Shown: positions 4,981-64,000 of the stretch, in pieces
How the letters are laid out: the number at the start of each line of letters is the position of its first letter
Position numbering within the stretch: position 1 is the stretch's first letter
Position numbers and translations under genes: made by a program
Assembly (NCBI RefSeq): GCF_044324785.1
Contig: NZ_CP172128.1
Length of the DNA stretch: 64,000 nucleotides
Reading direction: 5' to 3' (one strand)
Origin: Escherichia coli
GTDB lineage: Bacteria > Pseudomonadota > Gammaproteobacteria > Enterobacterales > Enterobacteriaceae
The notes under the pieces: generated by a model
Told to the model about the DNA's origin: nothing
Databases searched by the model: none
Seen by the model: the letters and a program-made list of their open reading frames with translations, nothing else

Positions 4981-5242
4981 CTGCTGATAATTTAAGTCTG
5001 GCACTAATGATTTTTAGCAATTTTGCGGGTGGGGATGATTTTTTATCCGGAGCAAACCCAATACTTTTCAGATAACAGAGAAGAGCGGCAAAACCAAACC
5101 GGCTGGCAGGTTTACGGTGAACATTGATAATTGCCAGATCCTGTTCACTGAAATACGTCATTCGAGTCAGTGTTAACTCATCGTCTGGTAATGCCAGTAA
5201 TGATTCTTTTTCCGACTGCGAAAGAATCTGCCTCCTTGCCAT
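4981..5242 (-). pseudogene. tnpA: Tn21/Tn3-family transposase TnpA, N-terminal ~87 codons only (truncated by IS2-like element)
   Basis: translation MARRQILSQSEKESLLALPDDEL... matches the conserved N-terminus of Tn21-subfamily TnpA; ORF runs into the IS right end at 4980. Confidence 0.6.
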
Positions 5243-50835: not shown

Positions 50836-51403
50836 ACTTCGGCTCCCGGCTGCCTGGCGGCATCCGGTCGTCAGGCCCGACTACGACAGGCAGCTGCTTG
50901 CGCACCCGCCAGTCTCCGCCGAACCCGCTGGCGCGGTTTCGGGCTGTCGCTACGGTCCGATGCGTGAAAAACCGGGCTTGCAGCGACCGTTCCGGTCGCG
51001 CCGCCTCTGTCGCGCCGTGACCTGCGCTCCCTGCACACCTGACGGTGTGTGAGGAAACTGCGCCTGATGGCGCAGCAGTCTTCCCTCCTGCCGCCACCTC
51101 TGCGGCCTGTTTCCCGCTGTGGACTTTCCGGGGGGCAGACGTAACCCCCTCCCGTTCCATCTGTCCAGGGTGAGATGCACCGGCCACAAAATTTTTAGCC
51201 ATGAACCCGGCTAAAAATTTTGCGTCCGCCCCCGGACAGCTGTCCCGTGAGGCGGTAAACGGGCCCCCATCGGAAAGGTCCACTGCGGGGAGAAACCCCT
51301 GTGAAGTGGACGGCAGGAGGAGCTTTCGCTCCTCTGAAGGGGCACATGAACGTCCCGTCGCCGGTATCCGGTTTATCTCACATCTTTCAGTCAGGAGGTT
51401 CTT
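50836..51403 (+). repeat. GC-rich structured leading-region repeat, type A copy 1 (Frpo/ssi-like)
   Basis: homologous to 57192-57739 and 60527-60897; ends at ssb start. Confidence 0.6.
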
Positions 51404-58266: not shown

Positions 58267-58533
58267 ATGAGACCATCAATTATCTTCGCAACCGCCGAGT
58301 ATGTAAAGCGTCTGCGTGAAGAGTGCCGGCGGGAGAACAAACCCCTGCACCGCCATACCCGCTTCAGACGCCAGGAACTGGCACCGGATGAGATTAACCC
58401 GGACGTCCTGGCGATGGGCGGTCATATCGCCAGACGCTGCAGTGAGCGGAAGCGGGTGCGTATCCCCGCCATGAAAGTCAGCGAATGGGGCCACCTGCTC
58501 CGCGCGCTTGAAATTGAACGGGTCTGCCACTGA
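58267..58533 (+). CDS. hypothetical small basic protein
   Basis: 88-aa ORF; weak support. Confidence 0.3.
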   Translation: MRPSIIFATAEYVKRLREECRRENKPLHRHTRFRRQELAPDEINPDVLAMGGHIARRCSERKRVRIPAMKVSEWGHLLRALEIERVCH

Positions 58534-58597
58534 TTACCCCTTGCCGTCTGCCTGTGCAGGCGGCAGGATACGTTCAGACATCTCACCAGGAGGAACC

Positions 58598-59560
58598 GTG
58601 AGTAAGAAGAAAAACACCACAACGCCCACGCCGCATGATGCTGCGTTCCGGTCGTTCCTGGCGAATCCCGACGTCGCCAGAGATTTTCTGGAACTGCATC
58701 TTCCGGCGGAGTACCGGCAGTTGTGCGACCTGTCCACGCTGAAGCTGGAACCCGCCACCTTTGTTGAGCCGGACCTGCATCAGTACGCCAGCGATATCCT
58801 CTGGAGTGTGAAAACCACCGGGGGTGAAGACGGCTATGTTTATACGCTCATCGAGCACCAGAGCACCGAAAATCTGTACATGCCTTTCCGCATGATACGT
58901 TACAGTGTGGCGGCGATGCAGAGACATCTGGAGCAGCACAAAACATTGCCACTGGTGATTCCGGTGCTGTTCTATCATGGTGAGCGCAGCCCGTACCCGT
59001 ACAGCATGAACTGGCTGGACTGTTTTGAGGATCCGGCGCTTGCGGCTAAAATATACACAAAGCCGTTTCCGCTGGTTGATATCACTGTCGTTGATGACAA
59101 TGAAATCATGAACCATCGCCGGATGGCCGCACTGACGCTGCTGATGAAGCATATCCGCCATCGTGACATGATGGAGCTGCTGGACAAACTCCCGCAGGTC
59201 ATGGTGGAAATTTCAGACGAGCAGGTGCGTGTTCTGATTCATTACATCGTTAACGCAGGGGACTCTGTATCACCGGAATTTATGCGGGCGCTGGCTGAGC
59301 GTCTGCCGCAGCATGAGGATAAACTGATGACTATTGCCGAACGTCTTGAGCAGCAAGGAATACAGAAAGGAATACAGCAGGGAATACAGCAGGGAATACA
59401 GCAGGGAATACAGCAGGGAATACAGCAGGGAATACAGAAAGGCCGCATGGAGGAGAAGCAGGATATTGCGCGTCAGCTTCAGAAAACGGGAATGCCATCT
59501 GCACAAATCTGTCAGATCACCGGACTTTCCGAAGCTGAACTGAAGAACATCACTCACTGA
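58598..59560 (+). CDS. Rpn-family (YhgA-like) recombination-promoting nuclease / putative transposase
   Basis: GTG start after AGGAGG RBS; N-terminus ..TPHDAAFRSFLANPDVARDFLELHLP.. and ..YTLIEHQS.. typical of Rpn/YhgA PD-(D/E)XK proteins; C-terminal (GIQQ)x7 repeat. Confidence 0.7.
   Translation: MSKKKNTTTPTPHDAAFRSFLANPDVARDFLELHLPAEYRQLCDLSTLKLEPATFVEPDLHQYASDILWSVKTTGGEDGYVYTLIEHQSTENLYMPFRMIRYSVAAMQRHLEQHKTLPLVIPVLFYHGERSPYPYSMNWLDCFEDPALAAKIYTKPFPLVDITVVDDNEIMNHRRMAALTLLMKHIRHRDMMELLDKLPQVMVEISDEQVRVLIHYIVNAGDSVSPEFMRALAERLPQHEDKLMTIAERLEQQGIQKGIQQGIQQGIQQGIQQGIQQGIQKGRMEEKQDIARQLQKTGMPSAQICQITGLSEAELKNITH
59357..59440 (+). repeat. in-frame 12-bp tandem repeat x7 (GGAATACAGCAG) encoding (GIQQ)n inside rpn-like gene
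   Basis: perfect tandem copies visible directly. Confidence 0.85.
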
Positions 59561-59571
59561 TGAGAACCACA

Positions 59572-59598
59572 AAGCCCGGCAAAATGCCGGGTTTTTTT
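59572..59598 (+). terminator. rho-independent terminator-like hairpin
   Basis: AAAGCCCGGCAAAATGCCGGGTTTTTTTG. Confidence 0.6.
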
Positions 59599-59622
59599 GT
59601 CAGCAGGAGCAGAGCAAACAGC

Positions 59623-59784
59623 ATGACGATTGCAGAACGTCTTGAGCAAAAAGGTCGCCAGGAAGGAGCGCTTGAAAAAGCCCTGGCCATTGCGTGCCAG
59701 CTTCAGAAAATGGGGATGACGCCGGAGCAGATTAAGCAGGCTACCGGACTGTCCGAAGCTGAACTGAAAAAAATCATTCACTGA
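59623..59784 (+). CDS. stand-alone Rpn C-terminal-domain paralog (53 aa)
   Basis: MTIAERLEQKG..GLSEAELKKIIH parallels the C-terminus of the upstream Rpn-like protein. Confidence 0.45.
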   Translation: MTIAERLEQKGRQEGALEKALAIACQLQKMGMTPEQIKQATGLSEAELKKIIH

Positions 59785-59842: not shown

Positions 59843-60037
59843 ATGACTATTGCAGAACGTCTTATACAGAAAGGTTTCGACGAGGGTTTTAAACAAGGTT
59901 TTAAACAAGGGGCTCTTGAAGTGGCGCGGGAAATAGCCTGCCGGCTGCGGGATATAGGCTGGCCGCCGGAACGGATTCAGGAGGTCACGGGACTTTCCGG
60001 TGAAGAACTGAAAAAGCTGTTTCCTGATGAGCAGTAG
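59843..60037 (+). CDS. stand-alone Rpn C-terminal-domain paralog (64 aa)
   Basis: MTIAERLIQKG..GLSGEELKKLF parallels the same domain. Confidence 0.45.
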   Translation: MTIAERLIQKGFDEGFKQGFKQGALEVAREIACRLRDIGWPPERIQEVTGLSGEELKKLFPDEQ

Positions 60038-61790: not shown

Positions 61791-61834
61791 TCTGTAATCA
61801 TCATAATCTCAGAACACGATGTGACATTGTCACA

Positions 61835-62176
61835 TCAATTGTTGTTCATATCGATGCCATCTTTCCTGCCTGAATCTGTCTTTTTAGGTGCTGTTTTAGA
61901 GGAAGAACGGCGGGATGGTTTTTTCGATTCTGCTTCCCGAATAATGTCACGAAGTGCCTTCTCTCCTACTTCATACCCTGCATTTTTGAGCGTGTCACGA
62001 ACATCTGCCAGTGTATAACCCTTTGTCCTTATCAGGACAATAATGTCATCACGAATGGCATCAAGAAAATCACGCAATGTTTTCCGTTGAGCGGTGAGAT
62101 CTGGCAATTCCGATAAAGCAGCTTTTGCCAGCTGGATGTCATCATCTGAGTAAAATTTTTTAGAAGCCATTGGCAC
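61835..62176 (-). CDS. hypothetical protein, divergent from nikA
   Basis: 113-aa ORF with Lys/Ser-rich basic tail. Confidence 0.4.
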   Translation of the reverse strand: MPMASKKFYSDDDIQLAKAALSELPDLTAQRKTLRDFLDAIRDDIIVLIRTKGYTLADVRDTLKNAGYEVGEKALRDIIREAESKKPSRRSSSKTAPKKTDSGRKDGIDMNNN

Positions 62177-62289
62177 TTTCTCTCCGTTTCATGTTGAAGT
62201 CTGATTTTATCATCAAAAACTGACTCCTGGCAGGGCTGCGCCCTGCCTCTGCCGTCTGCATAAGACTATGATGCACAAAAATAACAGGC

Positions 62290-62390
62290 TATAATGGCCT
62301 GAAAAACGGGACAGGATGTGTAATCGTATAACCGCGCACACACGGCTATACGATTACCACCTGGTCAGGGCTTAGCCCCGACACCCCGGT
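62290..62390 (+). promoter_or_regulatory. oriT region (putative nic site and NikA binding repeats) with nikA promoter
   Basis: inverted repeats CGTATAACC..GGCTATACG and GGGCTTAGCCC directly upstream of nikA, the expected oriT position in IncI-type transfer modules. Confidence 0.5.
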
Positions 62391-62402
62391 AAGGAGCAGA
62401 CC

Positions 62403-62735
62403 ATGAGTGAGAAGAAAACCCGAAGTGGCAGTGAGAAACGGCAAAAGAATGTCCTCATTGCTGTTCGTTTTTCACCAGAAGAGGCTGAGATTGTTAAAGA
62501 AAAGGCAGAAAAAAACGGACTGACAGTTTCAACTCTGATAAGAAAAACTGTGCTGGGAAAACAGATAAATGCCCGCATTGATGAAGATTTTTTGAAAGAG
62601 CTGATGCGTCTTGGTCGCCTGCAGAAGCATCTGTTTGTGGAAGGAAAACGCACGGGAGATAAAGAGTATGCAGAGGTTCTCGTTGCTATTACAGAGCTTG
62701 CTAATACTCTGCGAAGAGATTTAATGGGACGCTGA
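62403..62735 (+). CDS. nikA: NikA relaxosome accessory protein (RHH)
   Basis: 110-aa ORF (size of IncI1 NikA) immediately upstream of the relaxase. Confidence 0.75.
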   Translation: MSEKKTRSGSEKRQKNVLIAVRFSPEEAEIVKEKAEKNGLTVSTLIRKTVLGKQINARIDEDFLKELMRLGRLQKHLFVEGKRTGDKEYAEVLVAITELANTLRRDLMGR

Positions 62736-62746
62736 GATAATCGCTG

Positions 62747-64000
62747 ATGAATGCCATCATTCCGAAAAAAAGACGCGACGGAAAGTCTTCTTTTGAAGAC
62801 CTGATTGCGTACACCTCAGTGCGGGATGATGTGCCGGAAGATGAACTCAGGCCAGACACGGAAATGAAAGCTGAGATTCCGCACCGGAACCGCTTCAGAC
62901 GTCTTGTTGATTATGCAACACGTCTGCGTAATGAAAAATTTGTTTCCCTGATTGATGTGATGAAAGACGGCAGTCAGTGGGTGAATTTCTATGGTGTGAC
63001 CTGCTTTCATAACTGTTTGTCTCTTGAATCTGCGGCTGAAGAAATGCAGAAAGCAGCAGACCTTGCTCATTTTTCCAAAGATGATACAGATCCTGTTTTT
63101 CACTATATTCTCTCCTGGCCTGCGCACGAAAGTCCGCGTTCTGAGCAGCTTTTTGACTGTGTGCGTCACACCCTGAAATCCCTTGAGCTGTCAAAACATC
63201 AGTATGTGGCAGCCGTTCATACAGACACGGATAACCTGCATGTACATGTTGCAGTGAATCGTGTCCACCCTGAAACCGGCTATATCAATTGCCTTCCGTG
63301 GAGCCAGGAAAAACTCAGCCGTGCATGTCGTGAACTTGAACTTAAGCACGGATTCGCGCCTGATAATGGCTGCTTTGTGCATGCACCCGGCAACCGTATT
63401 GTGCGCAAAACAGCGCTGGTACGTGAGCGCCGTAATGCCTGGCGACGCGGGAAAAAGCAGACGTTCAGGGAATATATTGCGCAGATGTCGATTGCCGGTC
63501 TGCGTGAAGAGCCCGCACAGGACTGGTTATCTTTGCATAAACGGCTGGCCAGTGATGGTCTGTATATCACGATGCAGGAAGGGGAACTGGTGGTGAAGGA
63601 TGGCTGGGACAGAGCGCGGGAAGGTGTTGCACTCAGTTCGTTCGGACCGTCATGGACAGCTGAAAAACTGGGGCGGAAACTGGGGGAATATCAGCCTGTA
63701 CCGACAGATATTTTCAGTCAGGTGGGGGCACCCGGTCGTTATGATCCGGAAGCCATTAACGTGGATATCCGGCCGGAAAAAGTGGCAGAAACGGAGAGTC
63801 TGAAACAGTACGCCTGTCGTCACTTTGCTGAACGCTTACCGAAAATGGCGCGAAATGGTGAACTGAAAAGTTGCCTGGCTGTACACCGTACTCTGGCAGA
63901 GGCGGGATTATGGATGGGGATTCAGCACGGGCATCTGGTACTGCATGATGGATTTGAACCACAGCAGACGCCGGTTCGTGCAGACAGTATATGGCCGTTG
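62747..64000 (+). CDS. nikB: NikB MOBP relaxase, 5' part (runs off window end)
   Basis: open frame from ATG 62747 to window end; relaxase motifs VFHYILSW and HTDTDNLHVHVAVNRV. Confidence 0.8.
   Translation, partial: MNAIIPKKRRDGKSSFEDLIAYTSVRDDVPEDELRPDTEMKAEIPHRNRFRRLVDYATRLRNEKFVSLIDVMKDGSQWVNFYGVTCFHNCLSLESAAEEMQKAADLAHFSKDDTDPVFHYILSWPAHESPRSEQLFDCVRHTLKSLELSKHQYVAAVHTDTDNLHVHVAVNRVHPETGYINCLPWSQEKLSRACRELELKHGFAPDNGCFVHAPGNRIVRKTALVRERRNAWRRGKKQTFREYIAQMSIAGLREEPAQDWLSLHKRLASDGLYITMQEGELVVKDGWDRAREGVALSSFGPSWTAEKLGRKLGEYQPVPTDIFSQVGAPGRYDPEAINVDIRPEKVAETESLKQYACRHFAERLPKMARNGELKSCLAVHRTLAEAGLWMGIQHGHLVLHDGFEPQQTPVRADSIWPL

Follow-up and report, generated by a model that had tools for sequence, protein, structure and literature searches.

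A predicted IncB/O/K/Z-type origin of transfer upstream of nikAB on an I-complex plasmid of Escherichia coli

Near the right-hand end of the stretch of Escherichia coli DNA analysed here (64,000 nucleotides, hereafter the window), an intergenic region separates a yggA-like ORF from the genes nikA and nikB. An initial annotation had placed an origin of transfer (oriT) in this region. The genes and signals that frame it are the following:

61835-62176, minus strand: yggA-like ORF, divergent from the oriT
62177-62402: intergenic region carrying the proposed oriT, between the yggA-like ORF and nikA
62391-62396, plus strand: AAGGAG, Shine-Dalgarno sequence of nikA, 6 nt before the ATG at 62403
62403-62735, plus strand: nikA, 110 aa, ribbon-helix-helix (RHH) relaxosome accessory protein
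62747-64000, plus strand: 5' part of nikB, MOBP relaxase, cut by the end of the window

The gene order, i.e., a DUF4942 gene, yggA, the intergenic region, nikA and nikB, is identical in plasmid R64 (NC_005014.1), and the AAGGAG, which was read directly from the sequence, is kept in conjugative relatives. The proposed oriT is immediately upstream of the nikA-nikB operon, is co-oriented with it and adjoins the leading region, with the same neighbours as in R64. The leading-region genes ardA, psiAB and ssb lie to its left on the plus strand, and the predicted nicked strand is their template. In RefSeq relatives, the yggA-like ORF bears the name ‘molybdopterin-guanine dinucleotide biosynthesis protein MobC’. 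This looks like an annotation artefact because the ORF matched no Pfam or NCBIfam family, and the idea that it could be a relaxosome component was set aside on the same grounds. A 42-aa ORF on the minus strand (62213-62341), which spans the nick region, was treated as spurious. Between the yggA-like ORF and the convergent DUF4942 gene there is a perfect 8-bp hairpin (GATGTGAC-ATT-GTCACATC, 61818-61836), called terminator-like, which is kept in all I-complex relatives examined.

The two genes following the intergenic region encode a cognate RHH protein and a relaxase with its catalytic Tyr and histidine triad. NikA matches the Pfam NikA-like profile (4.9e-22) and the NCBIfam profiles MobA (2.3e-32) and TraJ (9.5e-9), as well as the RHH structure of R64 NikA(1-51) (PDB 2BA3, 4.4e-8). 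The nikB product matches the Pfam Relaxase family (MobA/VirD2 domain, 6.3e-29) and NCBIfam TraI_MobP_relax (7e-71); it is 74% identical to R64 NikB over 416 aa, and its translation contains Tyr22 and the histidine motif HTDTDNLHVHV.

Within the intergenic region the following elements can be distinguished, where a slash inside a sequence marks the predicted point of cleavage:

62229-62247: upstream stem-loop GGCAGGGC-TGC-GCCCTGCC, a perfect 8-bp repeat, 65-83 nt on the leading side of nic
62290-62295, plus strand: TATAAT, candidate -10 element of a nikAB promoter, inside a small repeat (CAGGC and GCCTG, 62285-62301)
62307-62386: conserved minimal oriT block (nick region, long repeat and 8-bp repeat)
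62308-62320: nick region GGGACAGGATGTG, minus strand 5'-CACATCCTGTCCC-3', identical to R64
62312/62311, minus strand: predicted nic, between 62312 (G complement) and 62311 (T complement), within 5'-CATCCTG/T-3', from R64 homology and the MOBP consensus
62320-62334: nic-proximal arm of the long inverted repeat (‘repeat A’, predicted NikA binding site), GTAATCGTATAACCG, at the R64 repeat A offset
62343-62357: distal arm, CGGCTATACGATTAC, complementary to 62320-62334 at 14/15 positions
62364-62382: 8-bp inverted repeat GTCAGGGC-TTA-GCCCCGAC, complementary at 7/8 positions

A similar sequence is present in 2,176 (near) to 3,569 (distant) plasmids of PLSDB. Twenty loci spanning this range of matches were collected and 17 distinct origins were aligned. 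All 17 of them share the nick-region core CAGGATGTG without change; the full 13-mer is exact in 12/17 and carries one substitution within its first four bases in the other 5/17. Read on the minus strand, this region is 5'-CACATCCTG/TCCC-3' and thus contains the MOBP core 5'-YATCCTG/Y-3', the published consensus being 5'-(C/T)ATCCTG(C/T)-3' (PMC3772185). The predicted nic is 8 nt from the long inverted repeat, a spacing identical to that of R64. While the initial annotation considered that nic could not be assigned by eye, homology with R64 does place it, as a prediction, at 62312/62311 on the minus strand. The nic of R64 was reportedly mapped by Furuya and Komano in 1991, at what we take to be the position equivalent to minus-strand 62312/62311, and the same authors are said to have given figures of 44 bp for the core and 92 bp for the minimal oriT of R64.

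Both of the inverted-repeat motifs that the initial annotation had seen between 62177 and 62402 are present. Two of the sequences, CGTATAACC (62325-62333) and GGCTATACG (62344-62352), are complementary at 8/9 positions and form the inner part of the long inverted repeat, while GGGCTTAGCCC (62368-62378) is the centre of the 8-bp repeat. The long repeat, of the ~17-bp class and with a loop of 8 nt, starts 8 nt from the predicted nic and lies 5' of it on the nicked strand. Three loci of the 64-kb window have 15-nt arms with <=1 mismatch and a loop of 3-12 nt, compared with a mean of 0.06 in shuffles that keep the dinucleotide content approximately. Folded as single-stranded DNA, the minus strand from 62300 to 62392 reaches -27.1 kcal/mol (z = -6.95) and pairs both stems completely. 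In all 17 oriTs the long repeat starts at one constant base, and its sequence varies by lineage with both arms changing together. Compensatory changes on both sides were found for 8/15 stem pairs across these 17 related sequences, the covariation score was reached by 0/500 shuffles, and pairing, at 85.6% of the long-repeat cells, drops to 30-39% once the partner is shifted by 1-3 columns. The long inverted repeat is far beyond chance.

The 8-bp repeat, which corresponds to the second, distal repeat of R64 and differs from it by a single loop base, has to be judged on other grounds. Comparable short repeats number 71 in the 64-kb window versus 26 in shuffles, and the 8-bp repeat alone is not significant. 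It is, however, nearly invariant in the 17 oriTs, which come from unrelated replicons, and its weight comes from this conservation and not from repeat statistics. Moreover, in 17/17 sequences it contains one plus-strand A.C position that turns into a G.T wobble on the minus strand. Over both stems, the non-Watson-Crick positions comprise 36 of the plus-strand A.C type (minus-strand G.T), 3 of the plus-strand G.T type and 20 that are mismatched on both strands. The asymmetry of the 8-bp repeat counts as one inherited character, so that it is mostly the long repeat, with 18 A.C versus 3 of the reverse type at several columns, that provides independent evidence. In the window itself, the mismatches 62331/62346 and 62367/62379 are both of the plus-strand A.C type. 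This asymmetry fits and suggests hairpins selected on the nicked, transferred strand.

Two further elements lie on the leading side of the nick region. The TATAAT at 62290-62295, a candidate for the -10 element of nikAB, shows no variation among 8 conjugative plasmids, one of which is the divergent pB72B of Citrobacter; in a consensus scan neither a plus-strand sigma-70 site for nikA nor a terminator at either repeat was called, and no good -35 was found for the TATAAT. The upstream stem-loop (62229-62247) shows compensatory changes in p22C057LT4 and pB72B and resembles the 8-bp oriT repeat. It is outside the block shared with orphan oriTs, and a weak promoter-like site for the yggA-like ORF, on the minus strand, overlaps with it. 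It might serve, at the leading end, as a further cis element not described so far.

Other parts of the window contain repeats and ORFs that deserve mention in their own right. A strong inverted repeat (ACAAAATTTTTAGCC and GGCTAAAAATTTTGC, 51186-51223) is located in the leading region just upstream of ssb and may be part of a single-strand promoter of the Frpo/ssi type, which has been mentioned for IncI plasmids (PMC3817090). In the cargo region, near genes for an alpha-galactosidase and a transporter, a perfect 16-bp inverted repeat (ATCCGAATCGTTTCGG and CCGAAACGATTCGGAT, 2241-2279) may be an operator. An ORF for an Rpn-family nuclease (58508-59560, plus strand) has tandem QQGI repeats near its C-terminus, and two short ORFs that come after it (59560-59784 and 59843-60037) repeat its C-terminal ‘MTIAERL...GLSEAELKK’ module.

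The region can be aligned position by position with the experimentally defined oriT of R64, which is flanked by the same genes. Alignment with R64 had been proposed as a check, and it gives an identical nick region, both inverted repeats at matching offsets and 92% identity overall. Over the 25 nt that close with the nick region, a single base differs, and it is upstream of that region; R64/ColIb-P9 and the window also agree in the 8-nt gap before the long repeat, in the 8-bp repeat and in the placement of the origin upstream of nikAB. The degree of identity to R64 nevertheless changes sharply along the locus:

62150-62319, from the yggA 5' end to the penultimate base of the nick region: 98.8% identity
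62320-62357, long repeat and loop: 67.5% identity
62358-62392, block of the 8-bp repeat: 91.4% identity
62403-62440, nikA 5' end: 52.6% identity

On a larger scale, identity to R64 amounts to 96-100% from 62319 leftwards to 60800, apart from a single 100-nt bin at 93%, and to 54-80% from 62400 rightwards. As located by these alignments, the mosaic breakpoint (boundary 62302-62320) falls within the invariant nick region that holds the predicted nic. Such a boundary would fit a relaxase-mediated or a homologous exchange at oriT.

The elements expected to determine specificity differ from those of R64. R64 has 17-nt arms in its long repeat versus 15-nt arms in the window, and both arms have changed; repeat A itself differs at 4/15 positions (GCAATTGTAATACCG in R64, GTAATCGTATAACCG in the window). 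This change is paralleled by the divergence of NikA, which is 67% identical to R64 NikA as a whole, with 28/55 identical residues (51%) over positions 1-55 and 44/55 (80%) over positions 56-110. In the beta-strand region, the window has KNVLIAVRFS where R64 has KTVVRTLRFS. Three further plasmids illustrate the range of these pairs:

pPK8275: NikA beta-strand IVKFTARFT, repeat A GGGAATGTCGGACCG
pB72B: NikA beta-strand TVIKTLRFT, repeat A GCATTTGTAATACCG
pYLPM22b: NikA beta-strand TILRAVRFS, repeat A GCAATTGTATAACCG

Nine protein/site pairs of this sort suggest that the DNA-binding half of NikA and repeat A vary together. An IncI1 origin would be expected to combine repeat A GCAATTGTAATACCGTC with an R64-type NikA RHH domain; the window has GTAATCGTATAACCG instead, together with NikA WP_001291056.1, as in the IncB/O/K/Z (pO26-CRL-like) subtype. 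Because both repeat A and the DNA-binding half of NikA differ from R64, the specificity of the window oriT is predicted to be IncB/O/K/Z rather than IncI1. The label ‘IncI-type’ in the initial annotation was thus right as regards the expected oriT site of a nikAB module, but it does not extend to an R64/ColIb-P9 (IncI1) specificity. Cross-recognition by the NikA of R64 appears doubtful, since the long repeat, NikA residues 1-55 and NikB all diverge from their R64 counterparts, and the data on R64 NikA contacts are not directly transferable because of the 4/15 differences in repeat A.

The closest well-described relative is pO26-CRL (NC_013728.1; IncZ/IncB-type), whose NikA is 100% identical to that of the window and whose gene order is shared. 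In its oriT, one base of the long-repeat loop differs (G versus A in the window), and the two plasmids differ in cargo, that of the window having an IncK2/Z backbone of the poultry type. The IncZ plasmids pO26-CRL125 and pO111-CRL115 were described as having a 17-bp oriT repeat that differs from R64 and an identical 8-bp repeat, the divergence of the long repeat being ascribed to a different NikA, and p3521 was grouped with pO26-CRL, pO26-CRL125 and pO111-CRL115 as having an IncZ/IncB-type oriT (PMC3817090). The direct comparison with the window was made with pO26-CRL, and the likeness to pO26-CRL125 and pO111-CRL115 follows from that published description. The best full-length matches to the window, with 99.8-100% identity, are IncK2/Z plasmids of poultry E. 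coli. Since the closest complete relatives are typed with several MOBP relaxases, further origins may coexist on the source plasmid.

The resemblance to RP4 (IncP) is more remote. It consists of the nick core ATCCTG/Y, an inverted repeat on the nicked strand, close to nic on its 5' side, and the combination of an RHH accessory protein (TraJ) with a MOBP relaxase (TraI) that has Tyr22 (PMC3772185). Beyond the nick core there is no sequence similarity, RP4 is without the second 8-bp repeat, and its mating-pair formation system is MPF_T versus the MPF_I of the window type.

How far the origin extends can be read from its orphan copies. Orphan oriTs on a 1.5-kb Col(MG828) plasmid and on an IncF plasmid are homologous to the window from 62307 to about 62386, and because the homology starts and stops there the segment 62307-62386 is, as judged from the alignments, an 80-bp autonomous module. 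This block corresponds to the 85-93 bp to which the R64-type oriT has been delimited (PMC3817090, PMC4743918). An 88-bp oriT of the window type occurs in 343 plasmids, 128 of them conjugative and 214 typed as mobilizable; among the matches listed, the mobilizable carriers are mostly 1.5-7.5 kb in size. About 200 small plasmids have the 80-bp origin with the window-type repeat A only and carry neither nikA nor nikB. Examples of orphan oriTs are found on the Col-type plasmid pG-09EL50 of E. coli O104:H4 (NC_018652.1; 1,549-bp Col(MG828); positions 1444-1529 of locus L023), which has the 80-bp block with the repeat A of the window, and at positions 389-481 of locus L004. Another group (pCERC7/NTP16/pU302S) has a window-like architecture with its own NikA and its own repeat variant, and is without nikB (PMC9282650). 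The orphan and nikA-only plasmids would be helper-dependent because nikB is missing, as is nikA in the orphans. In some of these copies the distal arm and the 8-bp repeat are slightly degraded.

A few of the sampled loci depart from this picture. The IncI1 plasmid pU15A_A (L013, 609-700) encodes a NikA identical to that of R64 and has an altered repeat A with a degenerate distal arm (3/17 mismatches); the 6.6-kb plasmid p727A3-6K (L018, 306-400) carries an orphan oriT copy identical to that of pU15A_A. CP027674.1 (L005) contains on the minus strand, at about position 5101 of the reverse complement of the locus, a second site where the nick region GGGACAGGATGTG recurs unchanged and leads into a perfect but unrelated palindrome of ~19-22 bp (GGCCATTAATGCTAATGTATGC...). 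This site may represent another oriT family that shares the nick motif.

Taken together, these observations make it highly probable (about 0.93 in our estimate, on comparative grounds) that the region is the functional oriT of an I-complex conjugative plasmid with an IncK2/Z-type backbone (MOBP/MPF_I). Several other readings of the repeats have to be weighed against this assignment. They might be an operator or leader only, serving NikA autorepression or forming an attenuator hairpin in the nikA mRNA, with no role as a transfer origin. Indeed, they are located between the invariant TATAAT and the nikA start, a bound RHH protein could block transcription from there, and the NikA-related TraJ is annotated as a regulator. 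However, the 80-bp block is also found in the ~200 small plasmids without nikA, in which there is nothing to regulate; it includes an invariant MOBP nick motif at the canonical 8-nt distance, and no terminator-like T run follows either hairpin in the consensus scan. A purely regulatory function is therefore very unlikely. In any case, autoregulation does not preclude origin function, and the two are known to coexist in RP4-type origins. A structured-RNA reading was dropped as no Rfam family overlaps 62177-62402 at E <= 1.

The sharp break in identity to R64 at the origin, with 96-100% on the left and 54-80% on the right, and the one mismatch in each inverted repeat could also be seen as the marks of a decayed oriT, left non-functional after recombination of an IncI1-like leading region with a foreign nikAB module. 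This is hard to reconcile with the presence of the same oriT/NikA pair in 128 conjugative plasmids, or with a NikA that is 100% identical in pO26-CRL. The arm changes are of the compensatory, not the random, kind; on the nicked strand the mismatches become G.T wobbles; and R64, too, has imperfect repeats (PMC3817090). All of this leaves little probability for a mere remnant. Finally, the view that the palindromes arose by chance between two genes can draw on the abundance of 8-bp repeats with one mismatch (71 versus 26, as given above), but this argument fails for a 15-nt repeat expected 0.06 times per window and for a fold with z = -6.95, and both repeats keep their position across 17 replicons. 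The odds of a chance origin are next to negligible.

For the preferred reading, i.e., a functional oriT, the course of transfer can be outlined from work on related systems. The core of the R64 oriT consists of the nick region and repeat A (PMC4743918), and in R64 the inner arm is required for initiation while the whole repeat is required for termination (PMC5863519, summarising Furuya & Komano 2000). In an IncB/O/Z-type plasmid, nikB was found to be essential for transfer by mutation and complementation, and a transposon screen placed nikAB among the genes required for conjugation (PMC10286972). By analogy with R64, NikA would bind the nic-proximal arm (62320-62334) and place the relaxase NikB on the conserved nick region next to it. 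Tyr22 of NikB would then cleave the minus strand at 5'-CATCCTG/T-3' (62312/62311) and stay on the 5' end, as extrapolated from R64 and RP4. On the same two models, the minus strand would be transferred 5'->3' toward lower coordinates, and with this polarity the leading region (yggA-like ORF, ardA, psiAB and ssb) would be expected to enter the recipient first and nikAB last. On the return of the origin, both repeats, being just 5' of nic on the displaced strand, would fold as hairpins, and their recognition by NikB would allow the rejoining that terminates transfer, again as in R64 and RP4.

This class of oriT has already been described, and the feature is real and was correctly interpreted at the outset; its identification by itself opens no new biological question. 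A broader idea, which we put forward only tentatively and hold to be rather doubtful, is that the oriT of the I-complex is made of two parts: a specificity half (repeat A and the NikA RHH domain) that has split into orthogonal classes, and a nick region that acts as a recombination junction. Relaxase-mediated oriT-oriT exchange between co-resident plasmids would yield precisely a near-identical left side and a right side with 54-80% identity to R64. If this two-part arrangement were true, the ~200 mini-plasmids with orphan oriTs would be mobilised by helpers of the IncB/O/K/Z type and not by IncI1 helpers, because they carry the window-type repeat A.

As an annotation, the assignment sets the origin, the nicked strand, the direction of transfer and the IncB/O/K/Z relaxosome subtype of the source plasmid, each at the level of a prediction. 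The subtype in turn predicts which helpers would serve the small plasmids that carry the 80-bp origin, and this would help to follow how resistance and virulence plasmids spread.
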